Of a DNA stretch of 64,000 nt, positions 3,809 through 59,497 are shown piece by piece. Origin of the DNA: Alphaproteobacteria bacterium (GTDB lineage Bacteria; Pseudomonadota; Alphaproteobacteria; SP197). The notes under the pieces were generated by a model. The model was given only the letters and a program-made list of their open reading frames with translations. It was not told where the DNA came from and did not search any database. The stretch covers positions 3,872,001 to 3,936,000 of the forward strand of contig OZ245842.1 in the NCBI GenBank assembly GCA_965228895.1. The letters are read 5' to 3'. Within the stretch, counting starts at the first letter, position 1. The number at the start of each line of letters is the position of its first letter. Both the position numbers and the translations under genes were made by a program.

Positions 3809-3943
3809 TAGAGCAGATCCCGTTTTGGTGGAATCGCTTCGCGATTCCGTCAAGACGGGTGAATCTGCTCTACTCATAAATCGAGAGCGGGCCATGGTTA
3901 GGTGGAACCGTCAAACGGTTCTACCTAACCATGGCCCGCTCTA
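3809..3943. repeat. Bipartite palindromic repeat (TAGAGC...GCTCTA family), copy 1
   Basis: Two long hairpins, 3809-3872 and 3883-3943; homologous copies at 19181-19318 and 48670-48808 in the opposite orientation. Confidence 0.9.
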
Positions 3944-3954
3944 GGGTGCACGCG

Positions 3955-4793
3955 ATGACAGACATGAAACAATTTGATCCAGGTGCCCAGAATGACTGGA
4001 TCTTCGACGCGGTGGCCCGAGACGGCGGTGCCATCGTTGAAGGCGTGCTGAATCGCGGTTTCTTTGCCGCGCTGCGCGACGAACTGGCCGGTTCGATCGA
4101 CGAAGCGCAGCCGGGAAGCCGGTCCGGCAACACACGTGTCGAGGGTTTTCACGGTGCCAACACCAAACGCATCTGCAGTCTGGCGCGCCGCTCGCCGGCC
4201 TTTGTCGACCTCATGCTGCACCCCCTGCTGCTTGCCTTCGCCGACCGCTTTCTACTGCCGGCCTGCAGCGACTACTGGCTCAACACCGGTCAGCTGATGA
4301 TCGTCGGCCCGGGTGAGCCGGCGCAGCGGCTGCATCGCGACGAAGGCAACTGGCCCTATCAGCCGTGGCCGGGACCGGAGGGACGGTGAGTTCCATGTGG
4401 GCGTTGTCGGACTTCACGGCTGAGGTCGGCGCGACCCGCGTGATACCGGGCAGCCATCTTTGGTCCGAACGCGATGAAGACGGCGATGACAGCGAGGCGG
4501 TCCAAGCCGTGATGCCGGCCGGCTCGGTCCTGCTTTATTCGGGCAAGGTCCGCCATGGCGCCGGCGCCAACCAAACGGCGGACACCTGGCGCTGGGGCCT
4601 TCATGTGAGCTACGTGGTCGGATGGCTGCGGCCGGAAGAAAACCACAACATGGCCGTGCCGATCGATACCGCACGGGATCTGCCGGAGCGCGCCCAGGCG
4701 CTGCTCGGTTACACATCGTATGTCCCCGACAAGGGCGGACGCTTGGGTCTGGTGGAGTTCGAGGATGCCGCGCTGGTGACGCGGGGGCCGTAG
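3955..4793 (+). pseudogene. Phytanoyl-CoA dioxygenase (PhyH) family Fe(II)/2OG oxygenase, frameshifted near 4381
   Basis: N-half (QRLHRDEG) in one frame; C-half (TVSSMWALSDFT...GATRVIPGSH...HGAGAN...WLRPEEN) in another; one base apparently missing at ccggag|gg|acggtg. Confidence 0.8.
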
Positions 4794-16819: not shown

Positions 16820-17410
16820 ATCGCCGGTGACGTGGCGTTCCAGCAGGTCCATCCGGTCGACGCCGAAGAAGAGCTTGCCGCCCGCGACAAAACTCGGCAC
16901 GCCGAACAGGTCCTGGTCGACAGCTTCTTGGGTGTTGGCGTCGACAGCGGCCTTGTAGGCGGCATCTTCGGCTATCTCCGAAATCGGCCGTGGACCCAAG
17001 CCGACCTTGTCGGCCACCGCCTGCAGCGCGGTGAAATCCGAGATATCCATCGCTTCCGACCAGTACCCCGTCATCACCGCGCTGACGAAAGCTTCGGCCA
17101 GACCTCGCTCACCCGCATAGACGCACGCACGCAACGCCCGAGAGGGCCGCAAGGGGTAATCAGGGTGAGGCCGCAGCGGCAGACCATAGAGCGCGGCGTG
17201 ATCTTTTAGATCCTGTTCGTACCACGCGACCCGACCGGGACTTTGCTTGAGCGGCTGCATCCCGTCGATCAGGGTCATCAGGTTCGCCAGATGCAGCGGC
17301 CGCCAGACGACATCCGATCCTACGCGCCGTGCGAGATCACCGATGCGTTGGCTCGCCAGATAACACCAGGGGCTATGCACATCGAACCAGAAGGTGATGG
17401 CGGCGCTCAC
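16808..17410 (-). CDS. DsbA-like 2-hydroxychromene-2-carboxylate isomerase / GST-kappa family
   Basis: FWFDVHSPWCYLA, FGVPSF, FFGVDR. Confidence 0.88.
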   Translation of the reverse strand: MSAAITFWFDVHSPWCYLASQRIGDLARRVGSDVVWRPLHLANLMTLIDGMQPLKQSPGRVAWYEQDLKDHAALYGLPLRPHPDYPLRPSRALRACVYAGERGLAEAFVSAVMTGYWSEAMDISDFTALQAVADKVGLGPRPISEIAEDAAYKAAVDANTQEAVDQDLFGVPSFVAGGKLFFGVDRMDLLERHVTGDSGD

Positions 17411-18210
17411 GATGCCTTCGGCCAGATCAGTGGAAACGCCGGTGCATCCATGGGATCGCCGTGTTTAAGCGTGACATCGGGAAACGGTGGCGACGTCATG
17501 CCCGGGCGCTCGGCAAAGCTCGCGTCGTCGCCTACCCACCGCGACGAGAACGCGCGCCGGCGCGTGTCAAGCGATCGGTTGGGCGGCGCGCCATGCAAGG
17601 TGCGGAACGAGAAGGCGACCGCATCGCCCGGCTCCAACGCCCATCCCAGGATCTCATAGTCCTCGCGGTGACCGTCGATATCGGGCAGCGCCTCGAACGT
17701 GCCGTCGTCATAAAGCGGCGTCTTGTTGAAACGCTCGGGCGTGAAGAAACGGCCCCAGGCGTGGGACCCACCGACGAACTCAAGTGTCGTCTCGCGCGGC
17801 ACCGGGTCCAGCACCAGCCACAGGCTGCACGTCATCGCGCCGTCGACGCAGTAATAGGGCTGATCCTGATGCCATGGCGTCGCGATCGACGTGCCCGGCT
17901 CCTTGACCAGGACATGCTCGTGGAACAGGCGCGCTGTGGTCGAACCCATGAGCGCGGCGGCAACGCCGGATGCATCCGAGCCGAACAGGAACTCCCGGTA
18001 CTCAGGGATACGGTCCCAACTGCAGTAGTCGCCGAAGAAGCGGCGGCCCTCGTCATCGTCGTAGATGCGCGCGATCGGACTGGGCGCCGCCATGTTGGCC
18101 TCGATGCCGCGCTGCAAGGTCTCAACCCAGTCGGTGAACACGCCATAAAGCGGCACCGCGCCATCGCGGCGAAACGCGTCGACAACCTTGCTGTCCAGAT
18201 CGTACGCCAT
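17407..18210 (-). CDS. PhyH family Fe(II)/2OG dioxygenase
   Basis: TPWHQDQPYY, GSH, EPGDAVAF..TLHGA, RRAFSSRW; 4-nt overlap with downstream gene. Confidence 0.9.
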   Translation of the reverse strand: MAYDLDSKVVDAFRRDGAVPLYGVFTDWVETLQRGIEANMAAPSPIARIYDDDEGRRFFGDYCSWDRIPEYREFLFGSDASGVAAALMGSTTARLFHEHVLVKEPGTSIATPWHQDQPYYCVDGAMTCSLWLVLDPVPRETTLEFVGGSHAWGRFFTPERFNKTPLYDDGTFEALPDIDGHREDYEILGWALEPGDAVAFSFRTLHGAPPNRSLDTRRRAFSSRWVGDDASFAERPGMTSPPFPDVTLKHGDPMDAPAFPLIWPKAS

Positions 18211-18328
18211 CGCTTACCATCAATCAGATAGTCCAGAGCTTGGCAAGGCCAGTCCCTTCGCGCAAGCCGGTTGACGGGGCCGACCGGCGCCCTAACCTCG
18301 GCCTCTCACGTTTCCCCGGAGGTATCGC

Positions 18329-19183
18329 GTGGCGCAACAGCTCGAAGTCTTTCAATCCCTATGGGCGATGGAGCGGCGCGCACCCGACGGCAAGGAGTGG
18401 TCGCTGCCGGAGAAATTCCGCATGATCGCCGAGGGTGGTTATGACGGCCTCTCCATCGACATGGCGGCCAGCGACATTCCGACCGTCGAAGAAGCCCGGC
18501 CCCTGTTCAAGGAGTTCGGCCTGGAATGTCTGATCGTCGCTTTTCCGCACGAGGTCGAGGATCTTAAACCGGTCTACGACATGGCTCGTGAACTGGGTGC
18601 GCGCCTTGTCGCAATCAACGCCGTCACCTTTCCGTTCACGCCTGAGGAAGGCGCTGATTTCGTGCAGCGTTCCCTGGACCTTGCGCGGGAGAGTGGTGTT
18701 GAAGCGCATTTCGAGACCCATCGCCTGACATTGACCACCGACATGCTCTACACGATCCAGGTCATGGATCTGGTGCCGGAGATGGAGCTCGTCTGCGACC
18801 TCTCACACTTCGTTGTCGCGCGCGAGTTCATCGTGCCGCCCGATGACTTCCATGCCGAGCAAATCGACCGCGTCCTCAAACGCTGCGTCGGTCTACAAGG
18901 TCGGATCGCGACACGTGAACAGGTCCAGATTCAGCCGACGTTCGCCCAGCACAAGGCCTGGGTCGATCTGTTCTGGTCGTGGTGGGAACAGGGTTTTCGC
19001 TATTGGCGGGCGCGCAAAGGCCCGGACGCCATCATGAATTTCCTGTGTGAGTTGGGCCCGCCGCCTTACGCCATCACCAACGCCGATGGCAACGAGTTGT
19101 CGGACCGATGGGAGGATGCACAACAGTTCAAGGAGGGTATCCGCGCGCTGTGGGCGCGTCTGGAGGCGGACGGCTCCCCCTAG
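18329..19183 (+). CDS. Xylose-isomerase-like TIM barrel (sugar phosphate isomerase/epimerase family)
   Basis: QSLWAM, FETHR, DLSH, ELGPPPYAI. Confidence 0.75.
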   Translation: MAQQLEVFQSLWAMERRAPDGKEWSLPEKFRMIAEGGYDGLSIDMAASDIPTVEEARPLFKEFGLECLIVAFPHEVEDLKPVYDMARELGARLVAINAVTFPFTPEEGADFVQRSLDLARESGVEAHFETHRLTLTTDMLYTIQVMDLVPEMELVCDLSHFVVAREFIVPPDDFHAEQIDRVLKRCVGLQGRIATREQVQIQPTFAQHKAWVDLFWSWWEQGFRYWRARKGPDAIMNFLCELGPPPYAITNADGNELSDRWEDAQQFKEGIRALWARLEADGSP

Positions 19184-19318
19184 AGCGGATCATGGTCAGA
19201 TGGAACCGCTTGACGGTCCCATTTGACCATGTGAATCCGCTCTCCATCTGAGAGTAGAGCAGATTCACCTGCCTTGATGCTATCGCGAAGCGATTCCATC
19301 AAAACAGGGTCTGCTCTA
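19181..19318. repeat. Bipartite palindromic repeat, copy 2; fills the whole gap between convergent genes
   Basis: TAGAGCGGATC...GAATCCGCTCTC plus TAGAGCAGATTC...TCTGCTCTA; terminal TAG/CTA are the stop codons of both neighbours. Confidence 0.9.
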
Positions 19319-19690
19319 GTGCTGAGCATCGGCCTGCTGCAGGACCCAGCCGTTACCGTCGGGGTCGCTGAACATCGCAAAGCGGCCCCAGGGTGTGTCG
19401 CCGACCTCGGTGATTTCGACACCCTTGGCGGCTATGGCATCGCGGTCGGCCTCGATGTCATCGGAGTTCAAGACCAAACCTTGCACCGATCCCGCCGGCA
19501 TCTTGTCGAGCCAGGTCACCAGCGTCAGACTTGTCTCCGCCCCCTTCGGGCCGACCTGGACCCAGCGCTGGTCGGGGCCCATCGGGTTATCGCGTATGAC
19601 CTCGAAGCCAAGCGTATCGGCATAGAAGTCCCTGGCCGCGGCCTGGTCGGACACGGGCACGGAGATAATCGCAATGCGGTTGAGTGACAT
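19316..19690 (-). CDS. VOC/glyoxalase family protein
   Basis: VPVSDQAAARDFYADTLGF...PWGRFAMFSDPDGNGW. Confidence 0.9.
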   Translation of the reverse strand: MSLNRIAIISVPVSDQAAARDFYADTLGFEVIRDNPMGPDQRWVQVGPKGAETSLTLVTWLDKMPAGSVQGLVLNSDDIEADRDAIAAKGVEITEVGDTPWGRFAMFSDPDGNGWVLQQADAQH

Positions 19691-19771
19691 GGCTCTTTCC
19701 TTGGTCGGCGCTCTCCCCGACTATAGGCCATCCAGCTCACGCCACGACACCGCCTGCACAAGCCCCAGACC

Positions 19772-21319
19772 ATGACAACGCTTCCCACCGACGCCCAACG
19801 CATCGGCGCCTGCCTCGCCCACCACACCGCGCAGATGCCTGATGGCGAGGCGTGCGTGCATCACGACCGGCGCGTTTCGTTCAGCGAACTCCACGGCGAC
19901 GTCACGCGATGGTCGAAGGCATTGATGGCGGCCGGTGTCGAACCCGGCGACCGCGTCGCCATGCTGACGGCACCGTGCATCGAATGGCTGACGGTGATGC
20001 TCGCCGTGACCGACATCGGCGCGATCTGGCTCGGCTATCATCCGCGCTACCAGCCCCCGGAGTTCCGGCACGTCACGGATCTTGCCAGGCCAAAGGTCGT
20101 CGTCGCCTTTCGGAACATCCATGGCCGCGACTACAGCGAGGAACTGGATGGCATGAATGACGCAGCGTCGGGCGTCGAGAAACTGGTCGTGCTGGACGAC
20201 ACCGATGCCCTCCTGGCGGCCGGCGACGCTGTTGCCGACGACGCACTCGCACGTCGGCAGAACGCGGTTCAGCCGGACGACACCGCCATCATCATCTTTA
20301 CATCCGGCACCACGGGTCAGCCGAAAGGCGCGATGGTACGCCACCGCGCGCTGCTGACCGGCGCCAAGACCGAATCGGAACACTGGCCAGCGACACGTCC
20401 GCGCATCCTGCACATGATGCCGGTCAATCACATCGCCGGCGCCGGCATGGTCGGTGTCTTCGGTCTTTATGCCGGCGGCACGCTGGTGTTCCAGGATAGA
20501 TTCGAGGCCGGCGACATGCTGCGCCTGATCGAACAGGAGTCGATCAGCTTTCTGTTGGGCTCGCCGGTGCAGTTTCACATGATGGCCCACCACGGCGAGC
20601 TGGAACGCCGCGACCTCTCCAGCCTCGCTTACACGGTCTGGGGCGGCGCGCCGATGGCCAAGGACCTGATCGAACGTCTAAACCGGCTGCCCGGCCATCT
20701 ATGCACGGCCTTCGGCATGACCGAACTGGGTCTTTATGCCACCTATTCGGACCTCGACACGCCGTTGGATGTTCTCAGCGCCACCATCGGCCGGCCCCAT
20801 GCGGACTATGATATCCGCGTCGCCGATGCGGACGGTCGTATCGCCTCGGCCGGCGAGGAAGGTGAGATCCAGGCGCGCGGCGACTGGCTCTTCGCCGGTT
20901 ACTTCGGCAACCCCGAAGCGACCGCGGACGCCTATACGGCGGACGGCTGGTTTCGCACCGGCGACATCGTGAAAGTGTCGCCGGACGGCAACCTGGAGAT
21001 CGTCGGCCGTGTGAAGGAAATGTTCATTTCCGGCGGTTTCAACATCTACCCGCGCGAGGTCGAAATCGTTCTGGAAAGCCACACGGCGACCGGTCTGGTC
21101 GCCGTTCTCGGTGTGCCGGACGATACCTTTGGCGAGGTCGGCCACGCCTTTATCGAGCTTCTGCCAGGCCATGAGGTGAGCGCCGACGAGCTCAGCGCCT
21201 GGTGCCGCGATCACCTGGCCAACTACAAGGTGCCCAAAGTCTTCGACATCCGGCCTGAACTGCCGCGCCTGCCGATCGGCAAAATCGATAAGCAGGCGCT
21301 GAAAAGGATGCTGGACTAA
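19772..21319 (+). CDS. AMP-binding acyl-CoA synthetase
   Basis: FTSGTTGQPKG, FGMTE, GWFRTGD, GRVKEMFISGGFNIYPREVE, GKIDK. Confidence 0.93.
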   Translation: MTTLPTDAQRIGACLAHHTAQMPDGEACVHHDRRVSFSELHGDVTRWSKALMAAGVEPGDRVAMLTAPCIEWLTVMLAVTDIGAIWLGYHPRYQPPEFRHVTDLARPKVVVAFRNIHGRDYSEELDGMNDAASGVEKLVVLDDTDALLAAGDAVADDALARRQNAVQPDDTAIIIFTSGTTGQPKGAMVRHRALLTGAKTESEHWPATRPRILHMMPVNHIAGAGMVGVFGLYAGGTLVFQDRFEAGDMLRLIEQESISFLLGSPVQFHMMAHHGELERRDLSSLAYTVWGGAPMAKDLIERLNRLPGHLCTAFGMTELGLYATYSDLDTPLDVLSATIGRPHADYDIRVADADGRIASAGEEGEIQARGDWLFAGYFGNPEATADAYTADGWFRTGDIVKVSPDGNLEIVGRVKEMFISGGFNIYPREVEIVLESHTATGLVAVLGVPDDTFGEVGHAFIELLPGHEVSADELSAWCRDHLANYKVPKVFDIRPELPRLPIGKIDKQALKRMLD

Positions 21320-21371
21320 ACGAGAGAGGTCCCGTCGCTACCGTCTATTCCCCGGGAACCGGACACGGTGA

Positions 21372-21824
21372 CTAGCCAGTCTGCTTGCCCTTTTCGGGTA
21401 CCTCGTGGGCGACCATAATCCGCGAGACCGCGGCCACCGCCAGGCCGGTTGAGAGCCCGAACAAGAGAATGCCGCCGGCCGCCTCCAGGCTGCTCAAGAG
21501 TTGCCAGCGTTCGCTCAGCACGATGTCGCCATAACCCAATGTCGTGAACGTTACGGTCGAGAAATAGAGCGAATCCGTCATGTTGGGGAACTCGCCCAGG
21601 TGAATGTAGAGCGCGGCCCAAAGCCAGATCTCGATCGTGTGGGCGAACAACAGGCCCATCATGATGACGACCATGGTGATCGTCGCGCCGAAATAGAAAC
21701 TCGATTTGAGCCAAGCGCCAGCGTGACGGCGCAGGATACCGAGCAGGATGGCCATGGCGGCAATGTGGACGGCGACACAAAGCGCCACCATGCCCGAACC
21801 CAAGAGCAGTTGCTGAACCAGCAT
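21372..21824 (-). CDS. Small potassium channel family protein (Ion_trans_2)
   Basis: YFSTVTFTTLGYGD selectivity filter flanked by TM helices. Confidence 0.88.
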   Translation of the reverse strand: MLVQQLLLGSGMVALCVAVHIAAMAILLGILRRHAGAWLKSSFYFGATITMVVIMMGLLFAHTIEIWLWAALYIHLGEFPNMTDSLYFSTVTFTTLGYGDIVLSERWQLLSSLEAAGGILLFGLSTGLAVAAVSRIMVAHEVPEKGKQTG

Positions 21825-21926
21825 GGCGCATCATAAGGCGATGATGTCGCGTCCGTCATGCCCGGACTATCCACATGCATGGCAGGACTGTTTATCACTC
21901 AAAAGTCGTCCTATGCTTGTTCCGTC

Positions 21927-22889
21927 ATGACTGCGACACGCCCCAATGCCGTCCCGGTCCCGACCCGCGACGTCGCGCAGGCCAAGGCCGATATCGCCCA
22001 CGCGGGTTATGGGATCCTTGAAGGCGCGCTGGATGAGGCGACCACGACGGCGATCCGCGACCGGCTGTTGGATCAGGCGACAGCCGAGCGCGAGCGACAG
22101 GTCGATGTCAGCAACTCCGCGGTCGAACCCGACGACGATGTGAACCAGTGGGTCACCATGCTGCCCAACAAGGGGCCGATGTTCCGCGCGCTGATCAACA
22201 ATGACGGTTGTCTCGGCCTCGTGCGCTCCGTCCTGGGCGATGATGCCATCCTCTCGGAGTTCTCCGCCCACATCACCTGGCCGGGCAATAAGGAAATGGC
22301 GCTCCACACCGACCAGTGGTTCATGCCCCAGCCGGCCCTGCCCGGCGAACATCGCAACCGGGTCAGCGAGATCACCCGCGCCGAGCAGCCGTTCGGCGGG
22401 CCCGAGCCCGCCACATGGGCGATCAACGCGCCGGTCGTCACCAACGCCATGTGGGCGATCACCGATTTCACGCGCGAAAATGGCGCGACCCGCCTGGTGC
22501 CCAAAAGCCACCTTTCCGGCAACCATCCCGCGCCCGACACGGCCTATGACTGTGTCTTTGCCGAGGCACCGGCCGGCAGCCTGGTCGTGTGGGAAGGCCG
22601 GACCTGGCATGCGGCAAGCCTCAACACCGGCACGACGCCGCGCATGGGCATCACGACCCATTGGTGCGCGCCCTTCATGCGCCAGCTTCTGAACTTCACC
22701 TATGGCTTGCGGCCGGAGGTTGCCGCCGACCTCACCGAGCACGAACGTGCGGTGATGGGTTTCAAGATCTGGAGCACCTATGGCGCCACCGGTGACTTCA
22801 ACGCCACATGGGCGACACCTGGCGTTGAGAACCCGGGCGAGATGTCGACGCACGACGAGACGGACGTCTTCTCTATACCAGAGGACTAG
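21927..22889 (+). CDS. PhyH family Fe(II)/2OG dioxygenase
   Basis: ALHTDQW, MWAITDFTRENGATRLVPKSH, WHAA; start trimmed to ATG 21927. Confidence 0.85.
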   Translation: MTATRPNAVPVPTRDVAQAKADIAHAGYGILEGALDEATTTAIRDRLLDQATAERERQVDVSNSAVEPDDDVNQWVTMLPNKGPMFRALINNDGCLGLVRSVLGDDAILSEFSAHITWPGNKEMALHTDQWFMPQPALPGEHRNRVSEITRAEQPFGGPEPATWAINAPVVTNAMWAITDFTRENGATRLVPKSHLSGNHPAPDTAYDCVFAEAPAGSLVVWEGRTWHAASLNTGTTPRMGITTHWCAPFMRQLLNFTYGLRPEVAADLTEHERAVMGFKIWSTYGATGDFNATWATPGVENPGEMSTHDETDVFSIPED

Positions 22890-23081
22890 TCCGAAGGTGT
22901 TTGAGTCATACGATATAGACGAACGTAACGCTCCCTGAACCCCTACACTTCATCCTTGGTGGACACGTCGCGAACTGCCGTAGACGCAACGCGCATTGTG
23001 CGCAGGCGACTCATGGCCTGAGACGTAGCGCTTGAGCGTCGATCGGCAGAACCGCAGTCCGCCAAGGGAGCGCGTACAGTC

Positions 23082-23645
23082 ATGGACAGCGGATCGAAAG
23101 AGAGCACCTCAAAGATTGCTGCCGCTATTGCCGCCGCTTTCATGGTGACGACATCCACAGTGGCGTTGGCAGAGACCGGTGAGTCGCCACAAAGCCAGAA
23201 CACGACGGTTTCGATCATCATTCCTGAACGGGTCAGCGTCCGGGAAGTCGACGAAGTCAGCGCGGGCGCGTCGGCCCTCGCCAGCGACGAACAGGCTGCG
23301 GTCAATCTTTGCGTCTGGTCGCAGGGTGGCGCCGCTGACGCCTACCAGGTGACCGTGATTTCCGATACCGGCGACTACAAGCTGACCAACGCTGAGTCGT
23401 CTGGCGATGTCGACTTTACGGTGGAATGGCGAAACCAGGCGACCCAATCCAACGGCACAGCCGTTCCCTACAACACGGCAACGCCACTTGTGCCTTTAGC
23501 GCCAACGACGCCCACCTGTGGCGGAGATGGAAACAGCAATTCAACGATCGTTGTCGACATTGCCGAAGGTGATCTATCGCTTCAGAAGGCGAACGCGGCC
23601 GGTTATGATGCGACCCTGACCGTCACCGTGGCCGCCGCGCCCTGA
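23082..23645 (+). CDS. Secreted beta-rich protein resembling a chaperone-usher (Csu/SCPU- or CS1-like) pilin subunit
   Basis: Signal peptide (ALA), two Cys, alternating beta pattern, C-terminal GYDATLTVTV strand. Confidence 0.55.
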   Translation: MDSGSKESTSKIAAAIAAAFMVTTSTVALAETGESPQSQNTTVSIIIPERVSVREVDEVSAGASALASDEQAAVNLCVWSQGGAADAYQVTVISDTGDYKLTNAESSGDVDFTVEWRNQATQSNGTAVPYNTATPLVPLAPTTPTCGGDGNSNSTIVVDIAEGDLSLQKANAAGYDATLTVTVAAAP

Positions 23646-23733
23646 CCGATCCAGAAACACCACTCAACGTAGGTGATTCGCACATCGTGTTCATCGAAGC
23701 CGGATCATGTCCGACGCTCGAGATAGATGTGCG

Positions 23734-24981
23734 TTAGACGTCTTCCCAGGGGAAACTGTCCAGCCGTTCGGCGCCGTCCGCGGTGACAAGCACCTGGGTC
23801 TCCAGCTTGATGCACTCGCTGCCTTTTTCGCCGATCAGGCTCTCGACACATACCGTCATGTTTTCTTCGAAGTGGCCGTCATAGCCGTGCTCGAAGTCGG
23901 GATGCAGCAGCACCACCGGCCACTCGTCAGCCATGCCGACGCCGTGGACGGCGAGCGAATAACGATAGGGTTGGTGTTTCTCGGGGATGCGCCAGGACTT
24001 CTCATTGAATTCGCGGAAGCTGACGCCCGCTTTGACGAGCGCCAGGTTATGGTCGATCTGCTCGCGCGCGGTCAGATAGAGCTCGCGCTGGCGATTGGTC
24101 ATCGCAACGTGTCCGCACGTCCATGACCGCGAGAGATCGGCGCAATAGCCATAGGGCCCGATCATATCGGTGTCGAAGCTGATCATGTCGCCTTCCCGGC
24201 AGACATAGTCCGAACACTCGGCATACCAGGGATTGGTGTGCGGGCCGGCAAGCAACAGCCGCGTCTCCAGCCAGCCGCCGCCCGAGCGCGCGTTCTCGTG
24301 ATGCAGCTCGGCCCAGATCTCCTGTTCCGTCTTGCCCGGCAGCGAAGCCTCGTACATGCGCGCCATGCCGGCCTCGCAGACCCGGATCGTCCAACGCATC
24401 AGGTCCAGTTCATCGGCGCTCTTGATGGCGCGCGCGCGTTCGGTCAATTCCTGACCCTCGACATAGGTGTAGCCCAGGTCTTCCAGGGCCTTCAGGCCAG
24501 GCGGTTCGATCTTGTCAATGGCAAGACGCCGGTTGCCGCCGCCATGGGCGCGCATGAGCTCGTCGATTTCGCCGGCCCAGTGTTCGAGCCTTTCGTCGCC
24601 GCGGTCGCCGGCCGCCATGTAAATCCATGACGTCGCCCGGCGCACCTCGTCGACCGCGGCGATGCCATCGCTCAAATGTTCGGCGTCCTTGAACTCGAAC
24701 AGCACGGCGGGGCCGTCGGTGAAGATGAGCGCGTAGCGCACGGCGTTATGCAGCGCCCAAAGCTGCATGTTCGTGACATCGAGCGCGTAGTGAATGTTGA
24801 CGGGGTCATAAAGCAGGATCGCCGCGCAATCGTGCTTTGCGAGTTCGCCGCGCAAACGCCCCAGACGATAGGCGCGCGCGGCCTCCAGCGTCGACACAGG
24901 CAACGGACTTTTCAGCGGTTTGTCGGCGCCCTCTTCGTTCAGATAGGTCGCCTTGCGTGGGTCTTTGAAAACCTCGGCCAT
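23734..24981 (-). CDS. dddP: M24 metallopeptidase-fold protein, DMSP lyase DddP-like
   Basis: DPVNIHY...NMQLW..HN, WLETRLL..GPHTNPW, FDTD, DLSR, HGVGMADEWP, CVE, KLE resemble DddP signatures recalled from Roseobacter DddP. Confidence 0.65.
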   Translation of the reverse strand: MAEVFKDPRKATYLNEEGADKPLKSPLPVSTLEAARAYRLGRLRGELAKHDCAAILLYDPVNIHYALDVTNMQLWALHNAVRYALIFTDGPAVLFEFKDAEHLSDGIAAVDEVRRATSWIYMAAGDRGDERLEHWAGEIDELMRAHGGGNRRLAIDKIEPPGLKALEDLGYTYVEGQELTERARAIKSADELDLMRWTIRVCEAGMARMYEASLPGKTEQEIWAELHHENARSGGGWLETRLLLAGPHTNPWYAECSDYVCREGDMISFDTDMIGPYGYCADLSRSWTCGHVAMTNRQRELYLTAREQIDHNLALVKAGVSFREFNEKSWRIPEKHQPYRYSLAVHGVGMADEWPVVLLHPDFEHGYDGHFEENMTVCVESLIGEKGSECIKLETQVLVTADGAERLDSFPWEDV

Positions 24982-24986
24982 GACCT

Positions 24987-25775
24987 TCAGCCTGCCCTTC
25001 CGTAAAAGCCGATGCGCTCGGCTTCGCTGAACGCGACCCCGGCGTTCTCGTAATAGGAAAAGACAGCGATGATGCGGTCACGTCCACCCTCGACCGGCGT
25101 GACCCGATGCGCGGTGTTCTTGCCCTTGAAGACATTCAACGTGCCCGGCGCCAGCGGCAGCGTCATGACTCCCGGATCGCGGCCTTGAAGCAGGTCGGCG
25201 ACGCCGTCGTAGTTGGGATCGCAATCGGTACGCAAACCCTGGCGGTATTGGAAGTCGCCGCCCGACACCGGCGCCTGCAACAACAATGTCGTCGTGAACT
25301 CCGAACGGTCGAAGTGCCAATTGAGCGCCTCGCCCGCGTGATAGGCCATGACATTGGCGCACGCTAACGGATCGTCCATGGTGTAGAGCACCGGTTTTTC
25401 CATGACATCGGCCAGGAACGCCGCAAGCGGCGGCCATTCATAGATCCGGCAGACCAGGCTGTCGGGAATCTGGTCCGCGCACACCGTGTGGTTGACCGTC
25501 TCGAATTCCGTCAACGCCGGATGATCGCGCGCCAGGCCGTCGACTTCGGGCAGGAAGTAGATGTTGTGACGCCGGCTGTGGGTGAACGCGCGCTCGCGCA
25601 GCGTGGGCGTGACCTCCGTAACAATCCGCTCGAGAGCGTCCGGCCGAACCAGGCCTTCCAGATTGAACAAACCGTGGGTTTCGAGCTCGTCGCGGCAGCG
25701 GTCGACAAGCACGGCGTAGTCGTCAGATGCCATCCGGTCGAGCGGATATCGATTGAGATCAAGAATGTCGTGCAT
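24987..25775 (-). CDS. BesD/HalD-family 2OG-Fe(II) oxygenase (HxD hydroxylase type)
   Basis: LNWHFDRSEFTTTLLLQAP..GG.F, HRVTPV, RIIAVFSY, FYGR. Confidence 0.75.
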   Translation of the reverse strand: MHDILDLNRYPLDRMASDDYAVLVDRCRDELETHGLFNLEGLVRPDALERIVTEVTPTLRERAFTHSRRHNIYFLPEVDGLARDHPALTEFETVNHTVCADQIPDSLVCRIYEWPPLAAFLADVMEKPVLYTMDDPLACANVMAYHAGEALNWHFDRSEFTTTLLLQAPVSGGDFQYRQGLRTDCDPNYDGVADLLQGRDPGVMTLPLAPGTLNVFKGKNTAHRVTPVEGGRDRIIAVFSYYENAGVAFSEAERIGFYGRAG

Positions 25776-25901
25776 CGGGCGGGACCACCTTCTGAACGAG
25801 GGTCAAACGTCTAAGACCGCACACTATCGACGCTTGCCAGCGAACGTCCAATCATCGCGCCGCTGCAGTTTCATGCATGCGATTAATGAAAATGTCGACA
25901 C

Positions 25902-27089
25902 CTACCACCATGTGATCGGCGAATGGGTGATGATCTCGTTGTGGTCGTCATGGACGATCAGGTTTTGCTCGTGGGCGGCGGTGCCAACACCGTCGACATG
26001 CAGGAAGGCCTCGATACCCAGCACCATGCCGGCATCGAAGCGGTCGTCTTCGGCCGACATCTTCAGACCGATGTAAGGGTGTTCCCAATAGAGGCCGGTG
26101 CCGTGGCCATAGAGTGGCCATTGGTCGTTCATCTGGCTGCCGCCCTCGGCAAAACGCGCGCTCATCTCATCGCCAAGACGTGCGACGTCGTGCACCAGGA
26201 CGCCCGGTCTGATCGCCTCGATCACCGCGTCGACGATGGCAATGCAGTTCTCGATCAAGGCGCGCTGATCGCTGGTCGGCTTGCCGCCGGCGACCGCCGT
26301 GCGGCCGGGATCGAGCCAGTAGCCCTGATAGATGATACTGTCGAGCCAGCCGCGAACGAGGTCACCGGACTTCGGCACGTCGGTCGAGCAGCCGGTGAAG
26401 GGGTTGGTCGCCCAGCGCGAGATCTGCTCGCCATGGGCGACCGGTATCATTTGGCAGGTCGCGCCACGGCGCAGCAGGGTCGCCACCGCATCGGCAACCG
26501 AGTCGGCCTCGCTGGCGCCGCCGACCAGGCCGGTCATCAGCGCGTTGAGCGCCTCGGTCGCGATATCACCGGCCTCGCGGCACCGTTCCTGTTCCCGGGC
26601 GCTCTTGATGCGACGGGGCCGCTGCACCAGCAGATCGTCGACCGACCACGCGACGTCGGGTGCGGCCTCCTGCAGCATCGACCAGTAGCGCATGGGCAGA
26701 AAGTCGCTGCCGGTCAGCACAACATTGCGGGCGCCGGTCTGGGTCAGGCGGCGGCCGGTGGCGGCAATCGGGTTGGTGCTGCCCTCGACCCGGTCGGTCG
26801 CGATGAGCTCGCGCCGCGGGTCCGGCTCGTCGATGATCAGTTCGGGCACCTCGCCCGGCCTCATGATGACGGCGTACAGCGAACGGGCCGTGTTGAGCGG
26901 GTTGTCGACCTCCTGGCCGGAAGCGCATGAATAGTGGTTGGTCAGATAGAGCACATCGCCGCAGCGGTCGTAGCTGCCGCCGCCCTTGCCCCAGATCACC
27001 GCGGCGTCATAGCCGCCGTCACCGATCGCCCTGTTGACTGCTGCCCACCGGCTTTCGTACTCGTCGGGCGGAAACAATCCGCTTTCCAT
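25902..27089 (-). CDS. M24 family (Xaa-Pro peptidase/creatinase-like) hydrolase
   Basis: FPPDEYESR N-terminus, RRIKS, GYWLDPGRT, GHGTG, GMVLGIE, HEQ. Confidence 0.82.
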   Translation of the reverse strand: MESGLFPPDEYESRWAAVNRAIGDGGYDAAVIWGKGGGSYDRCGDVLYLTNHYSCASGQEVDNPLNTARSLYAVIMRPGEVPELIIDEPDPRRELIATDRVEGSTNPIAATGRRLTQTGARNVVLTGSDFLPMRYWSMLQEAAPDVAWSVDDLLVQRPRRIKSAREQERCREAGDIATEALNALMTGLVGGASEADSVADAVATLLRRGATCQMIPVAHGEQISRWATNPFTGCSTDVPKSGDLVRGWLDSIIYQGYWLDPGRTAVAGGKPTSDQRALIENCIAIVDAVIEAIRPGVLVHDVARLGDEMSARFAEGGSQMNDQWPLYGHGTGLYWEHPYIGLKMSAEDDRFDAGMVLGIEAFLHVDGVGTAAHEQNLIVHDDHNEIITHSPITWW

Positions 27090-27211
27090 GTACCTCTCCA
27101 TGCTGGGATCAACCAACGCTAGACGTTGAATCGGCCCGCGCCAAGCCGCCGGAGGCTTGGGATAGTGTCGAAGATGGCTTATCTAACAGAACGAAGACGG
27201 ATGGAGAGACC

Positions 27212-27889
27212 ATGTCCGACAACGCCCTGAACGACGACTTTTCAGCGCTGGCCGTCATGGACACCGCTGCCATGGACTGGCAGGCGAGCCCCAGCCCGTC
27301 GGTCTGGCGTAAACGTCTCGAGCTGAGCGGCCCGGCGGAGGCCGGCCGCGTCACGTCGATCGTACGCTATGACGCCGATAGCCGGTTTCACGAACACCCT
27401 CATCCCGACGGCGAGGAGATCTTTGTGCTGGAGGGTGTTTTTTCCGACGAGCACGGCGACTATCCGCCTGGTAGTTTTCTGCTGAACCCCGAAGGCTTCA
27501 ACCATGCGCCGCGCTCAAAAGACGGCTGCGTCCTGTTCGTGAAGCTGCGCCAATATCCCGGCCTCGACCGCAATCAGATCAAGGTCGACACGGCGAGCGC
27601 GCCCTGGCGTGCCGGCTCGGTCGACGGCATCAGTGTGCAGGACCTCTATCACGAGCCCGATCATCCCGAACGGATATCCCACGTACGTATCGAGCCAGGC
27701 ACCCAAGTGCCCGAACACGGCCACCTGTCAGGTGAAGAAGTCTTCGTGCTGGAGGGTGGTTACCACGACGAGCACGGCAGCTTTGGCGCCGGCAGTTGGG
27801 TGCGTTATCCCGCCGGCAGCCGCCACACGCCGGTGACCGACGGGGGATGCCGCCTTTACGTCAAGTCGGGGCATCTGGTCGATGCCTAG
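27212..27889 (+). CDS. ChrR-like double cupin domain protein
   Basis: HPHPDGEEIFVLEG and HGHLSGEEVFVLEG repeats; LFVKL. Confidence 0.88.
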   Translation: MSDNALNDDFSALAVMDTAAMDWQASPSPSVWRKRLELSGPAEAGRVTSIVRYDADSRFHEHPHPDGEEIFVLEGVFSDEHGDYPPGSFLLNPEGFNHAPRSKDGCVLFVKLRQYPGLDRNQIKVDTASAPWRAGSVDGISVQDLYHEPDHPERISHVRIEPGTQVPEHGHLSGEEVFVLEGGYHDEHGSFGAGSWVRYPAGSRHTPVTDGGCRLYVKSGHLVDA

Positions 27890-28934
27890 CCCGGCACTCA
27901 GGCGCGCCGAGGGCCCGGCCGTGTGGCATGGGCCTGAGATGGCGCAGCGCTCCGAGTGGTTGGTAGCGCTGTCCGATGACCACATCGCCGAGCTGGAAAC
28001 AGCGGCCACCGGCTTGCTGACCGAAGGCCGGGCGCTTGAAACCGTCGGCATTGACGATGTTTCCCTGCCCAGAGTCGACCCACTGCTGGCCGAGGTCACA
28101 TCCGAAGTTCTCAACGGGCGCGGCTTCGTCTTGCTGCGCGGCCTGCCGGTCGAGCGCTGGGACCTCGAGACGACGGCGGCGGCCTATTGGATGATCGGCA
28201 CGCGCCTGGGTCAGGCGGTATCGCAGAATGCCCAAGGCCATCTGCTGGGCCACGTGCGCGATCTGGGCAACGACCCGGATAGCCCGAAGACGCGCATCTA
28301 TACCACCCGCGCGGCCCAGGAGTTTCATACCGACAGTTGCGATATCGTCGGCCTGTTGTGCCTGAAACCCGCCGCCAAGGGCGGCGCCAGCAGCCTGGCC
28401 AGCTCGACCGCGATCTATAACGAGATCGCCGCCACGCGCCCTGACCTCGCCCACGTTTTGATGCAGCCTTTCACGGTCGACCGTAAGGGCGAGGTGCCGG
28501 ACGGCAAGGACCCGATCTATGACCTCGCCATCTTCCACGACTTCGCCGGCCATATCACGGCGATCTATGCCAGGAGTTTCATCCGCGCCGCGCAATCCAG
28601 ACCCGAAGTCGCACGCCTGACGGCCGCCCAGAACGAGGCCATGGACATGGTCGATGCGCTGGCCGCCAGCGATGCCTTTCGGTTCGACATGGACTTTCGC
28701 CCCGGCGACATGCAGTTCCTGCACAATCACCAGATCCTTCACGCGCGCACGGCCTATGACGACCACATCGACCCCGCGCATAAGCGTCATCTTCTGCGTC
28801 TGTGGATATCCGCGCGCTCGGGGCGGCCGTTGCCACCGGGTTTCGCGGAACGCTACGGGCCGCTCGATCAGGGCGCCGTACGCGGCGGCATCCGTGTTCC
28901 CGGTGTTAGACCCGTCGTCTCTCTGACGCCTTAG
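27882..28934 (+). CDS. TauD/TfdA family dioxygenase
   Basis: GRGFVLLRG, FHTDSCD, NHQILHAR, RHLLRLW; 8-nt overlap with cupin gene. Confidence 0.9.
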   Translation: MPSPALRRAEGPAVWHGPEMAQRSEWLVALSDDHIAELETAATGLLTEGRALETVGIDDVSLPRVDPLLAEVTSEVLNGRGFVLLRGLPVERWDLETTAAAYWMIGTRLGQAVSQNAQGHLLGHVRDLGNDPDSPKTRIYTTRAAQEFHTDSCDIVGLLCLKPAAKGGASSLASSTAIYNEIAATRPDLAHVLMQPFTVDRKGEVPDGKDPIYDLAIFHDFAGHITAIYARSFIRAAQSRPEVARLTAAQNEAMDMVDALAASDAFRFDMDFRPGDMQFLHNHQILHARTAYDDHIDPAHKRHLLRLWISARSGRPLPPGFAERYGPLDQGAVRGGIRVPGVRPVVSLTP

Positions 28935-28962
28935 ATCATATTCCGCTCACGCGAGAGCGGCG

Positions 28963-29030
28963 CCGGACCACTCCCCCGCCCGGCTACCCATGGCAGCATC
29001 CTCGGGGTGGCCGGGTGGGGCGTGGGCTGG
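28963..29030. repeat. GC-rich hairpin repeat, copy 2 (degenerate stem)
   Basis: CCACTCCCCCGCCCGGC...CCATGGCAGCATCCTCGGGGTGGCCGGG shared with 10137-10205. Confidence 0.8.
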
Positions 29031-56661: not shown

Positions 56662-56704
56662 TTGACTCAATCGATATATCTAGATATCTAGAAATATCGA
56701 TTGA
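56662..56704 (+). promoter_or_regulatory. Promoter (-35 TTGACT) overlapped by a 38-bp near-perfect palindrome; probable ArsR operator
   Basis: TCAATCGATATATCTAGATATCTAGAAATATCGATTGA (56667-56704), one mismatched pair, AT-rich, just before RBS AAGGAG. Confidence 0.8.
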
Positions 56705-56720
56705 CCCGAAGGAGACCACC

Positions 56721-57125
56721 ATGCGTCTGCACATTTCGATGCAGGTTAAGGAATTCGACAAAGCCATCCGCTTCTACTCGGGCCTGTTCGGCCAGGCGCC
56801 GACGGTGACGCGCGACAACTACGCCAAGTGGGATGTCACCGACCCCAACGTCAACTTCGTCGTTGAAGCCCTGGGCAACGAAGTCCGCGTCGACCACCTG
56901 GGCATTCAAGCGGAGACCAAGGACGAACTGACGGTGCTGGCCGGGCGCATGCGCGAGAGCGGGCAGCCGTTCCTCGATGTCGAGAACGCGCAGTGCTGCT
57001 ACGCGGATCTCGACAAAGCCTGGGTCAAGGGCATGGCCGGCGAAAAATGGGAAGCCTTCTTCACCCACGGCCAGTCGGAGCAGGAATACGGCGAAGACCG
57101 CGAACACTTGCTTGATATCATGTGA
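56721..57125 (+). CDS. arsI: ArsI/CadI family VOC metalloenzyme (C-As lyase-like), copy 1
   Basis: RLH, YAKW...P.VNF, DHLGIQ, CCYA, WEAF; RBS AAGGAG. Confidence 0.8.
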   Translation: MRLHISMQVKEFDKAIRFYSGLFGQAPTVTRDNYAKWDVTDPNVNFVVEALGNEVRVDHLGIQAETKDELTVLAGRMRESGQPFLDVENAQCCYADLDKAWVKGMAGEKWEAFFTHGQSEQEYGEDREHLLDIM

Positions 57126-57168: not shown

Positions 57169-57975
57169 GTGGAAACGAATCAAACCGATACCGTCGCTTC
57201 GAGCCAAGGACGTTTGTCCGGCAAGAACGCCATCGTCACCGGCGGCGCCGGCGGCATGGGCCGTGCCGCGTCCGTGCTGTTTGCGCGCGAGGGCGCTGCC
57301 GTCACGATCCTCGACATTCAGAAAGAAGCCGGTGAAGAGACAGTCGACGAGATCGAGCAAGCTGGTGGACGGGCGCAGTTCGTCGAGACCGATGTCACCG
57401 ACACCGGCCAGATCGTTCGTGCTTTCGACAAGGCAACCACGACTTACGGCGAACCGGACGTGTTGTTCAGTCACGCCGGCACCATCATCGTGAAACGTTT
57501 CCACGAAACGACGGACGATGACTACGACCGCCTGATGGCGATCAACGCCAAGTCGTCCTTTCTGTGCTGCCGCGAAGCGATCCGGCGCTTTCTCGACGCT
57601 GGCAGGCCCGGGTCGATCGTTATCACGTCGTCGATCGGCGGCGAAAAAGGTTTCGCTCTGGAAAGCGTCTACTGCATGTCGAAAGGCGCGGTGCTGCAGC
57701 TCGCACGCTCGATATCCAGTGAATACCGGGACCAGGGCATTCGCTGCAACGCGGTCTGTCCGGGTTTCGTGAAAACGGCGCATGGCCTGCGCGAAATCGA
57801 TGAACTCGATGGTCTGGGACAGACCTGGGAAGAGGCCGCGCTTGCCGAATCGCAAGTCCGTATCTGCGAGCCCGAGGAAGTCGCCGCGGCGGCGCTTTAT
57901 CTGGCCTCAGACGACGCGAGCTTCGTCAACGGCACAGCGCTCTATGTCGATAACGACTGGTACGCGAAAGGCTAA
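57169..57975 (+). CDS. Short-chain dehydrogenase/reductase within ars-type operon
   Basis: TGGAGGMG, SHAG, YCMSK, NAVCPG; GTG start after AAGGAAG. Confidence 0.9.
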   Translation: METNQTDTVASSQGRLSGKNAIVTGGAGGMGRAASVLFAREGAAVTILDIQKEAGEETVDEIEQAGGRAQFVETDVTDTGQIVRAFDKATTTYGEPDVLFSHAGTIIVKRFHETTDDDYDRLMAINAKSSFLCCREAIRRFLDAGRPGSIVITSSIGGEKGFALESVYCMSKGAVLQLARSISSEYRDQGIRCNAVCPGFVKTAHGLREIDELDGLGQTWEEAALAESQVRICEPEEVAAAALYLASDDASFVNGTALYVDNDWYAKG

Positions 57976-57998: not shown

Positions 57999-58253
57999 GT
58001 GAGTGAAGAAAGCGTCAGGGCGTTTGTGCTGCAGGCGCGCGACGACGAAACGCTCAAGGAATCCATGCGCCACGTCGGCTCATCCGATGACGTGGTCGCG
58101 CTTGCCGTCACAGCCGGTCACAGGTTTTCGGCCGACGACTTGGACAAGACCAACGTCGACCTGGCGGCCGAAGATCTGACGAAACTTGCCGTCCGCCGGG
58201 CCGGCTTCCGTGTCCAGCCTTATGGCGCGAAACACTGGTTCGGGTGGAAGTAG
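57999..58253 (+). CDS. Nif11-like leader peptide domain protein (possible RiPP precursor)
   Basis: MSEESVRAFV...DDETLKE...DDVVALAVTAGHRFSADDL...DLAAEDL matches the Nif11 (N11P) leader pattern; weak RBS. Confidence 0.72.
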   Translation: MSEESVRAFVLQARDDETLKESMRHVGSSDDVVALAVTAGHRFSADDLDKTNVDLAAEDLTKLAVRRAGFRVQPYGAKHWFGWK

Positions 58254-58298: not shown

Positions 58299-58619
58299 AT
58301 GTCGTTTCTTTCCCAACACTTTCCTGAGTTCACATCCACGCTTACGGAAATGGACAAGGTTTACGAACAACACCGAACGATCGACCACAAGACCGACGAG
58401 CTCATCCGTTTTGCCTTGTCGATCAAGGCGCGCTCCAAACCCTGTGTCCTCAAACACTTCAAGGGCGCGGTCGACGCCGGTGCCAACGAATACGATCTCG
58501 CCTATATCCTCGCTCTGGTGATGCGCGAGGCCGCCGGTGCCGACGACTGCTGGACCCACGATGTCATTGGCGACTGGCAGGAGGTCATTTCCGGCAAGCG
58601 CGGCTGCGGTTGTCCTTAG
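58299..58619 (+). CDS. Carboxymuconolactone decarboxylase/AhpD-like protein with four Cys
   Basis: IDHKTDELIRFALSIKARSKPCVLKHFKGAVDAGA CMD pattern; DDCW; C-terminal GCGC. Confidence 0.75.
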   Translation: MSFLSQHFPEFTSTLTEMDKVYEQHRTIDHKTDELIRFALSIKARSKPCVLKHFKGAVDAGANEYDLAYILALVMREAAGADDCWTHDVIGDWQEVISGKRGCGCP

Positions 58620-58629
58620 GAGGCATGTG

Positions 58630-59037
58630 ATGGGTGCTCTAGCGGAACAATGGGCGCAGTTGCGCGAGCTCTCGATGCGCGAGGACACGCTGGCGCTGGA
58701 AGAAGCAGCACAGGGTTTTGCCGCGGCGGGGTCGGAACCACGCCTGGAGGTGCTGCGTATCCTGATCCGCGCCGGCGAGGCCGGATTGACAATCGGCGAG
58801 GTACAAAACCGCGTGGGCTTTGCGTCCTCGACGCTGTTCCATCATCTGCGTTTCTTATCGTCGGCCGGCCTTATCGAACAGGTGAAGTCGGGCCGGACGG
58901 TGCACAACCGGGCGAACTTTGCCCGGATCGAATCGCTCGCGGCGTTCCTGCTGCACGAGTGCTGTTTCGAAGATCCCGAGTACGCACCCGACGGCAAGAC
59001 ACTCGGCTGTAAACCGCGCCGGCGTTCACAATCATGA
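58630..59037 (+). CDS. arsR: ArsR/SmtB family repressor (C-terminal CC type)
   Basis: EPRLEVLRILIRAG..GL.IG...SSTLFHHL..L..AGLI; ECC plus a further Cys; GGAGG RBS. Confidence 0.88.
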   Translation: MGALAEQWAQLRELSMREDTLALEEAAQGFAAAGSEPRLEVLRILIRAGEAGLTIGEVQNRVGFASSTLFHHLRFLSSAGLIEQVKSGRTVHNRANFARIESLAAFLLHECCFEDPEYAPDGKTLGCKPRRRSQS

Positions 59038-59056: not shown

Positions 59057-59497
59057 ATGAAACGGATCCACATGGGAATCGTCGTGACCGATTTCGACAA
59101 ATCGCTGAAGTTCTACTCGGACCTACTCGGCGCCAGCCCAACGCTGCTCAAGGACGGGTATGCGCGCTGGATGCTGGACGATCCCTGCGTCAACCTGAAC
59201 ATCAACGTTCAGGGTCCGGCGCCGGGCATCGATCATGTCGGTATCCAGGTCGACAGCGATGACGACGTTGCCGAAGCCGGCGAACGGTTGCGCGCCGCCG
59301 GTCATCTGGCAAAGGACGATAACGACTCGAACTGCGGCTACGCCGAACAGACCAAGGTGTGGGTCTCCGACCCCCAGGGCGTCGTGTGGGAGACCTTCCA
59401 CTCCAAGAAAGCCCTTGAGAACTATGGCGAAAATGATTTGCCCGACGACCTTATCGAAGAACTGCGCGACGGTGCCGGAGCCACAGCGCCGTCGTAG
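59057..59497 (+). CDS. ArsI/CadI family VOC metalloenzyme, copy 2 (CG instead of CC)
   Basis: KRIH, YARWMLDDPCVNL, DHVGIQV, NCGYAEQTKVWVSDPQGVVWETF; RBS AAGGAG. Confidence 0.8.
   Translation: MKRIHMGIVVTDFDKSLKFYSDLLGASPTLLKDGYARWMLDDPCVNLNINVQGPAPGIDHVGIQVDSDDDVAEAGERLRAAGHLAKDDNDSNCGYAEQTKVWVSDPQGVVWETFHSKKALENYGENDLPDDLIEELRDGAGATAPS

Follow-up and report, generated by a model that had tools for sequence, protein, structure and literature searches.

A Nif11 leader-type protein with a conserved cationic aromatic tail in an ArsR/ArsI-like operon of an alphaproteobacterial genus

Introduction

Nif11-type leaders have been treated as markers of the precursors of peptides that are synthesized ribosomally and modified post-translationally (RiPPs), and recent work describes them as small folded docking domains. 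Here, we analyse a gene for an 84-residue Nif11 protein that lies in an apparent arsenical-response operon within a 64,000-nucleotide stretch (hereafter, the window) of contig OZ245842.1, the single contig that makes up the genome of an alphaproteobacterium (5.53 Mb, 98.7% complete).

The closest described systems are the N11P precursors of the prochlorosin type (Haft et al. 2010, PMC2887384), with which the protein analysed here shares the family hidden Markov model (HMM), a helical, acidic leader spanning ~62 residues, hydrophobic side chains at leader positions -12, -7 and -4 and a short C-terminal peptide. The differences are nevertheless substantial. The sequence V-R stands where 24 of the 28 relatives that we read have G-G, and the C-terminal peptide is conserved, single-copy and free of Cys, Ser and Thr, whereas those of N11P precursors are variable, often Cys/Ser/Gly-rich and accompanied by paralogues. 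Furthermore, the genome lacks LanM/LanC, a dedicated cyclodehydratase and a C39 exporter, and the host of the gene is an alphaproteobacterium, in which it belongs to an ArsR/ArsI operon and not to a paralogue family of the cyanobacterial kind. A second point of comparison is the MppE leader (PDB 9zn4), which works with the Fe/alpha-ketoglutarate hydroxylase MppG (preprint 10.64898/2026.10.04.756588) and combines a four-helix bundle and a disordered L(X)4L strip with an adjoining non-heme iron enzyme, an arrangement also predicted for the protein analysed here. However, MppG carries an RRE domain, whereas none was found in the genome studied here, in which the putative iron enzymes at the locus are small ArsI-type VOC proteins. 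Stand-alone Nif11 proteins without the G-G site (about 57-65 residues; loci L130, L136, L138 and L139) are encoded in the same class, but these stop at the domain or shortly beyond it, and none has the tail described below or VOC, SDR, CMD or ArsR neighbours. Finally, the locus has in common with ArsR-ArsI organoarsenical operons the iron triad and Cys pair of its first VOC protein and the pairing of ArsR with VOC genes, and differs from them in the presence of a Nif11 gene; a literature search, judged in part from titles and abstracts, yielded no description of a Nif11 gene in an arsenic operon. As argued below, the protein is, in our tentative judgement and at somewhat less than even confidence, a cytoplasmic accessory or adaptor protein, the bundle of which makes the tail available to a partner from the arsenical-response operon or to the membrane.

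Results

The Nif11 protein

The assignment to the Nif11 family is supported by two curated models. The protein matches Pfam PF07862 with 39.2 bits (E 8.6e-10; gathering threshold 23.8), its residues 1-48 covering all 48 positions of the profile, and NCBIfam TIGR03798 (leader_Nif11, titled 'Nif11-like leader peptide family RiPP precursor') with 39.9 bits (E 3.6e-10; cut-off 32.3), where residues 1-62 align with positions 1-64 of 68 and the last four model positions find no counterpart. The orthologue from a congener (G002) scores even higher on PF07862 (47.8 bits). A profile search of the genome returned a single Nif11 match, namely, this open reading frame (ORF). Its GTG start aligns with the ATG of the two congeneric orthologues, each of which is 84 residues long. 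The entry in the protein collection (P0001) has only 75 residues, being called from a second GTG (58026) nine codons downstream. Given the orthologue alignment and the full coverage of the PF07862 profile, the start of P0001 was probably placed too late and the 84-residue form appears to be the correct one. In the two congeners, the stop codon of the preceding SDR gene lies 3 nt ahead of the Nif11 ATG, compared with which the window carries an extra 20 nt inserted between the SDR stop and the Nif11 start.

The protein falls into three parts, an acidic bundle, a short acidic linker and a cationic aromatic tail (Table 1). An AlphaFold 2 model built from a 28-row alignment has helices at residues 2-15, 17-25, 29-39 and 45-50, with a predicted local distance difference test (pLDDT) score of about 77-84, whereas pLDDT falls below 50 in residues 56-74 and 76-84, so that the tail and the strip that follows the bundle are predicted to be disordered. 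By sequence profile, the best match in the PDB is 9zn4, the MppE Nif11 leader (E 9.1e-12); the same entry tops the Foldseek rows, but with an E-value of 0.73 and TM-scores of 0.42-0.44, which is not significant by itself. Leader positions -12, -7 and -4 are occupied by L55, L60 and L63, for which the congeners have L, V and I. These hydrophobic residues constitute the L(X)4L motif that guides C39 peptidases; contacts between proteins are made through Nif11 bundles and the L(X)4L strip (preprint 10.64898/2026.10.04.756588). No signal peptide was recognized in the 84-residue protein.

Our analysis followed up an annotation made from the sequence alone, hereafter the original prediction, which had noted a Nif11 leader pattern, the replacement of the usual Gly-Gly cleavage site, and a cationic, aromatic tail without Cys, Ser or Thr. 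All three features hold up. Both HMM scores are above their cut-offs; when the protein is aligned to canonical leaders, V65-R66 stand in place of Gly-Gly and are followed by R-A-G, the A-G coming three residues further on, and V-R is present at this site in all four homologues; and residues 63-84 carry a net charge of +5, one His and five aromatic residues, with none of the three side chains named.

Conservation and selection

Conservation of the tail among homologues, which the original prediction had named as a check, is pronounced. Among the four homologues, 15 of the 20 positions from 65 to 84 are invariant, as against 19 of the 64 positions that precede them, and the consensus of the tail is VRRxGFRVxP[YF]G[AS]KHWFGWK. 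We estimated the ratio of non-synonymous to synonymous substitution rates (dN/dS) by the Nei-Gojobori method with our own script. Across the whole Nif11 gene, the ratio is 0.17-0.24, compared with 0.007-0.20 for the other five genes of the operon. Within the gene, the values are 0.12-0.26 for the bundle (residues 1-48), 0.24-0.84 for the linker (residues 49-63), the fastest-evolving part, and 0.03-0.07 for the tail (residues 64-84), where one pair was not computable due to saturation of the synonymous sites. Thus, the Nif11 gene evolves faster than any other gene of the operon, yet its tail ranks among the most constrained segments. Furthermore, a second sequencing run yielded a contig that shares 98.6% identity with the window across 801 bases and differs from it at five positions within the ORF, all of which are, by our reading of the codons, synonymous third positions. 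Conservation of the tail as a DNA or RNA signal was considered and ruled out by the saturation of synonymous sites together with the lack of any Rfam match across 50-64 kb of the window. The fact that synonymous change is saturated while the protein sequence of the tail is conserved therefore implies that selection acts on the peptide itself. Judged from these substitution patterns, ORF 57999..58253 is a real gene selected as a protein.

This family has very few members. When 1.84 billion representatives were searched exhaustively with phmmer (E<=1e-3), 31 matches emerged, only one of which, P0003, is full-length; it is 56% identical and represents the G002 orthologue. Of the other 30 matches, we read 28, leaving out two long multidomain proteins; all 28 align to the leader only (residues 1 to about 64), and 24 of them have G-G. 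A word-index search added P0002, an 89-residue metagenomic protein on a 636-bp contig, which is 61% identical and has the same tail; the family as known comprises four full-length sequences. The 433 pattern matches in JGI metagenome contigs included no relatives, the best score in the ESM Atlas was 0.80 and concerned Nif11 only, and a six-frame scan of the genome revealed no second copy of the tail motifs. When residues 45-84 were sought within longer proteins, none of the 27 candidates contained them, which is weak evidence. Among 41 related genomes, the orthologue is present in three, namely, the genome of the window and those of the two remaining species of its genus, and was not found in the other 38.

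In the class at large, Nif11 domains occur in 20 of 401 genomes. Our own reading of the printed frames at 29 such loci indicates canonical acidic leaders ending in G-G, often arrayed, at 17 of them, whereas at least five (L130, L136-L139) encode short proteins without G-G that are not obvious precursors; a VOC, SDR, CMD or ArsR homologue was found beside the Nif11 gene at none of the 29. Cys-free cores exist among the cyanobacterial Nif11 precursors.

Search for processing machinery

According to the original prediction, the window encodes no LanM, YcaO, radical SAM protein or peptidase-transporter. Scans of the window ORFs, which comprised 50 greedily picked ORFs at 1-52 kb, nine ORFs at 52-59.5 kb and the alpha-2-macroglobulin ORF at the 3' end, gave no match to any of these, in agreement with the prediction. 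The prediction had also proposed a genome-wide search for RiPP maturases. Domain searches, each run with positive controls in reference genomes, returned zero matches for Peptidase_C39 (PF03412), LanC-like, SPASM, PqqD/RRE and MbnB-type MNIO domains, so that for these classes nothing was found anywhere in the genome, whereas one YcaO-TfuA pair and three P450 genes are present. As for export, the best genome-wide score against TIGR03797 was 302 bits versus a cut-off of 709 (TIGR03796 itself was not searched), and the best score for HlyD-type TIGR03794 was 51 bits versus 156; hence, the genome has no N11P-type exporter above cut-off.

The YcaO (280 bits) and TfuA (163 bits) genes are located outside the window, in a locus at about 1355331-1358369, directly after an ORF of 284 codons. 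This ORF, the product of which has no Pfam match, repeats a 132-nt unit (...ASSRLAIDPGD...) 4.7 times, and a regulator with adenylate-cyclase, AAA and TPR domains is encoded upstream of it. By its repeat structure, the 284-residue protein looks like the pair's own multi-core precursor for backbone thioamidation. TfuA was found in all three genomes that carry the Nif11 gene and also in 4 of the 38 that lack it. With a repeat precursor of its own and a distribution wider than that of the Nif11 gene, the YcaO-TfuA pair was downgraded as a candidate maturase. A multi-precursor thioamide-type cluster was observed in G037, a genome from another family of the class, where nine weak Nif11-like matches flank TfuA (about 1054000-1092000); these ORFs run to ...LEKVAAG or ...LEQIAGG and then continue into Ala/Val/Gly-rich cores.

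The operon

The Nif11 gene is the third of six closely packed, codirectional genes (Table 1), the order of which is identical in all three genomes of the genus, with 72-89% identity between the congeneric proteins.

Table 1. Palindrome, genes and protein segments of the six-gene unit (coordinates within the window).
Feature	Coordinates	Strand	Description
Palindrome	56667..56704	.	38 bp, AT-rich, 19+19 nt, 95% complementary; 16 nt 5' of VOC1
VOC1	56721..57125	+	134 aa, ArsI-like; NF041414 ArsI_CadI_VOC 112.8 bits, just below cut-off 116
SDR	57169..57975	+	classical, 268 aa from GTG 57169 (alternative GTG 57127); adh_short_C2 201 bits, adh_short 170 bits
Nif11 gene	57999..58253	+	GTG start, 84 aa
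Nif11 bundle, residues 1-50	57999..58148	+	acidic, helical, net charge -5; PF07862 over residues 1-48
Nif11 linker, residues 51-62	58149..58184	+	acidic, net charge -2; L(X)4L motif at L55, L60
Nif11 tail, residues 63-84 and stop	58185..58253	+	cationic aromatic, LAVRRAGFRVQPYGAKHWFGWK
AhpD/CMD-like Cys protein	58299..58619	+	106 aa; PF02627 CMD 24 bits, gathering 23
ArsR/SmtB-family regulator	58630..59037	+	135 aa from ATG 58630; HTH_20 30.1 bits, HTH_5 25.3 bits (gathering 22)
VOC2	59057..59497	+	146 aa, ArsI/CadI-like, single Cys (NCGYA); NF041414 114.4 bits, cut-off 116

Several features are consistent with the arsenic context assumed in the original prediction. Residues Q8, H59, E111 and C92-C93 of VOC1 correspond to the iron triad and the vicinal Cys pair of ArsI (Gln8, His65, Glu117 and Cys98-Cys99; PMC6138428), the counterparts lying at a constant offset of -6. 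The regulator, which scores 45.5 bits on NF033788 and hence under the cut-off of 55, has a CC...C cluster at its C-terminus. At the start of the operon, a palindrome with a perfect centre stands out as AT-rich within otherwise GC-rich DNA, and palindromes with the same ATCTAGAT core are found at the same place 5' of the VOC1 orthologues in both congeners (G002 and G001). By its sequence and position, the palindrome is a likely operator for ArsR and would overlap the promoter of the operon. Within the operon, no internal promoter or terminator signals rose above the shuffled expectation. Pfam and NCBIfam scans identified no arsB/acr3, arsC or arsM in the six-gene unit; judged from the gene content, the label 'arsenic operon' appears reasonable, although the unit is without an efflux, reductase or methylase gene.

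The DNA upstream of the operon varies within the genus. In G002, it encodes a rhodanese, a SAM methyltransferase and a 619-residue fusion of a papain-like peptidase and an alpha-beta-hydrolase (L005:875-4683), and ORFs of corresponding size and position precede the operon in G001 (L006), the domain scan having been done on G002 only; in the window, unlike in G002, the operon is preceded by transporters. The papain-like peptidase upstream in G001 and G002 was ruled out as the leader peptidase, with no match in the genome of the window.

The neighbouring gene families elsewhere

The families that flank the Nif11 gene are common elsewhere in other combinations. The CMD-like protein has 399 relatives in species-representative genomes. 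Outside the genus, we kept 79 loci, with 64-70% identity, from Desulfobacterota, Bacillota, Chloroflexota, spirochaetes and methanogens, none of which has VOC1, SDR, Nif11 or VOC2 near the CMD gene. At five of the nine loci where the neighbours were scanned, the CMD gene is accompanied by ArsR, an ArsP_1 permease and/or small thioredoxins. The family of the CMD-like protein is very conserved, shows the invariant motifs RSKPCVLKH, GADDCWTHD and a C-terminal CxC, and has no curated model that scores above cut-off; the gene often stands beside those for ArsR, the ArsP_1 permease and a Thioredoxin_3 protein; a literature search for CMD with ArsR and ArsP brought up no description of such an arrangement. 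In the genus studied here, the Nif11 gene occupies the thioredoxin-gene slot of other CMD clusters, and the nearly invariant Cys37 is an Arg. Among the 41 relatives, the CMD gene, too, was found in this genus only.

ArsI-like VOC proteins are encoded in 72 of the 401 sampled genomes of the class, a count that takes in one genome flagged as unpublished (G063), which enters into no other statement made here. At 25 of 29 such loci, an ArsR-like gene is adjacent to the VOC gene, ArsR followed by VOC being the common arrangement, and none of the 29 has an SDR, Nif11 or CMD homologue nearby. The SDR family is large as well, with many members at 66-72% identity; with six candidates scored per genome, SDR orthologues were found in one other genome out of 400 in the class at E<=1e-85 (55% identity) and in none of 400 in the phylum at 1e-95. 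Because the CMD, VOC, SDR and Nif11 families occur elsewhere without this combination, the VOC1-SDR-Nif11-CMD block looks, by its distribution, like a genus-specific addition to the common ArsR-VOC module.

Other features of the window

Two further regions of the window attracted our attention. Two overlapping ORFs share the PhyH dioxygenase profile between them, its N-terminal half being matched by 3931-4389 and its C-terminal half by 4365-4793, and may represent a frameshifted or split gene. A cluster at about 17400-29000 encodes Fe/alpha-ketoglutarate-type oxygenases (three PhyH, one TauD and one HalD-like), two M24 peptidases, an AMP-binding enzyme, a cupin and an SDR; it is catabolic or tailoring in appearance and has no RiPP hallmarks.

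Discussion

A proposed accessory or adaptor protein

The accessory role is favoured because the neighbouring families occur widely without the Nif11 gene and no processing route is visible. Under this scenario, the protein would have kept the docking half of a Nif11 leader, that is, the four-helix bundle and the hydrophobic strip formed by L(X)4L and position -4, and would have lost the processing half, namely, the Gly-Gly site, the C39 exporter and the maturase. The disordered 20-residue Arg/Lys/Trp-rich tail would be the working part, displayed by the bundle, and might act as a short linear motif that binds a protein of the operon or the inner face of the membrane. With its acidic N-terminus and no exporter found for it, the protein, presumably cytoplasmic, would be produced together with the ArsI-like C-As lyase, the SDR, the AhpD-like protein, ArsR and VOC2 through co-transcription, probably under the control of ArsR.

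Several points weigh against such a role. The TIGR03798 model, the cut-off of which is passed, was curated as a RiPP-precursor family, and a bundle followed by a disordered strip and a short conserved C-terminal peptide is the exact layout of a precursor. Such a constrained, disordered tail denotes either a short linear binding motif or a RiPP core. The genes of Nif11 precursors often lie at a great distance from those of their enzymes (preprint 10.64898/2026.10.04.756588; PMC2887384), and the genome does contain a YcaO-TfuA pair, 2.5 Mb away, as well as three P450 genes at distances of at least 270 kb, while the maturase searches covered named enzyme classes only. Co-occurrence carries little weight with four sequences and three contexts, the latter from one genus.

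A possible non-canonical RiPP precursor

The principal alternative, less likely in our view but to be taken seriously, is that of a non-canonical RiPP precursor, the leader of which guides one or more enzymes onto a Cys-free core of about 15-18 residues that begins after R66 or G69. The enzymes in question could be encoded by the neighbouring genes (the ArsI-like Fe(II) dioxygenase, the SDR or the AhpD-like protein) or be a distant P450 or YcaO-TfuA. The chemistry would possibly be hydroxylation, cross-linking or thioamidation, and a general protease that cuts at the dibasic RR would bring about release. To our knowledge, none of the flanking enzyme families is a recognized primary RiPP maturase class, and all of them are widespread without such a peptide.

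The properties of the protein itself speak for this alternative: it scores above the TIGR03798 cut-off, the leader residues at -12, -7 and -4 are kept, the conservation of the tail is extreme, and the length of the tail fits the mean suffix of 23 given for the family (PMC2887384, Table 3). There are also precedents: a non-heme iron enzyme is known that takes its guidance from a Nif11 leader (preprint 10.64898/2026.10.04.756588), and Rhizobium and Ruegeria are reported to have Nif11-like precursors within TfuA-related clusters (PMC8120280). The presence of TfuA in all three genomes with the gene and the nine weak Nif11 matches around TfuA in G037 point in the same direction, and the cyanobacterial precursors demonstrate that a core can be Cys-free. 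On the other side, RRE/PqqD, C39, LanC, SPASM and MNIO domains are missing from the genome, and the YcaO-TfuA pair, besides its distance of 2.5 Mb, has the 284-residue precursor for itself and occurs in four genomes without the Nif11 gene. Moreover, the Nif11 gene is single-copy and its would-be core is conserved rather than variable.

A more elaborate version of the precursor scenario, which we regard as doubtful, is an ArsR-controlled, leader-guided pathway in which the bundle would recruit the ArsI-like dioxygenase, the SDR and/or the AhpD-like protein to oxidize or cross-link the Trp/Tyr/Lys-rich core; the product would be a new class of RiPP or a peptide-derived redox cofactor or ligand for the handling of arsenicals. 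Aromatic cross-linking of the tail, the modification suggested in the original prediction, is pure conjecture.

Further alternatives

It appears improbable that the protein is an unmodified pro-peptide, the acidic bundle of which masks a Trp/Arg-rich membrane-active peptide, bacteriocin-like or membrane-targeting, until the latter is released or exposed. The opposed charges (-5 in the bundle, -2 in the linker and +5 in the tail, with its five aromatic residues) would suit this function. The tail may resemble Trp/Arg-rich antimicrobial peptides. N11P leaders, for their part, are similar to class II bacteriocin leaders (PMC2887384). However, the protein has no signal peptide, the genome encodes neither a C39 exporter nor an N11P-type transporter that scores over the cut-off, and no immunity-like gene is found in the conserved six-gene unit. 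The pro-peptide function would also leave the location in a detoxification-type operon unexplained.

It is most improbable that the gene is a functionless relic of a RiPP precursor, decaying within the operon after its pathway was lost. Such a relic might be suggested by its rate of evolution, the fastest in the operon (dN/dS 0.17-0.24 versus 0.007-0.20), and by the missing Gly-Gly site and processing genes. However, length and frame are preserved in all four homologues, the dN/dS of the tail is 0.03-0.07 with saturated dS, and all five strain differences are synonymous. To explanations other than the accessory role, the RiPP precursor, the pro-peptide and the remnant, we assign a small share of the probability.

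The original prediction had left the choice between a RiPP precursor and a Nif11 domain repurposed in arsenic handling undecided. The data do not decide between the two, but the genome-wide absence of the machinery, the separate precursor of the YcaO-TfuA pair and the occurrence of the neighbouring families without the gene shift the weight toward the repurposed domain.

Significance

The scope of the finding is narrow, extending to four sequences and one genus. Within this scope, the locus presents a leader without a cleavage site and without known processing partners that is, nevertheless, under selection, fused to a conserved disordered tail and placed in a metalloid-response operon. It offers a useful test of what a Nif11 leader does once its pathway is gone. 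If the tail is modified, the enzymes involved would fall outside the known maturase classes, amounting to new RiPP chemistry that is switched on by arsenicals. If, on the contrary, the tail is not modified, the protein would clearly exemplify how the leader domain of a RiPP can be put to new use as an adaptor, and should the adaptor role prove true, it would counsel caution in genome mining, where tools call every TIGR03798 match a precursor.

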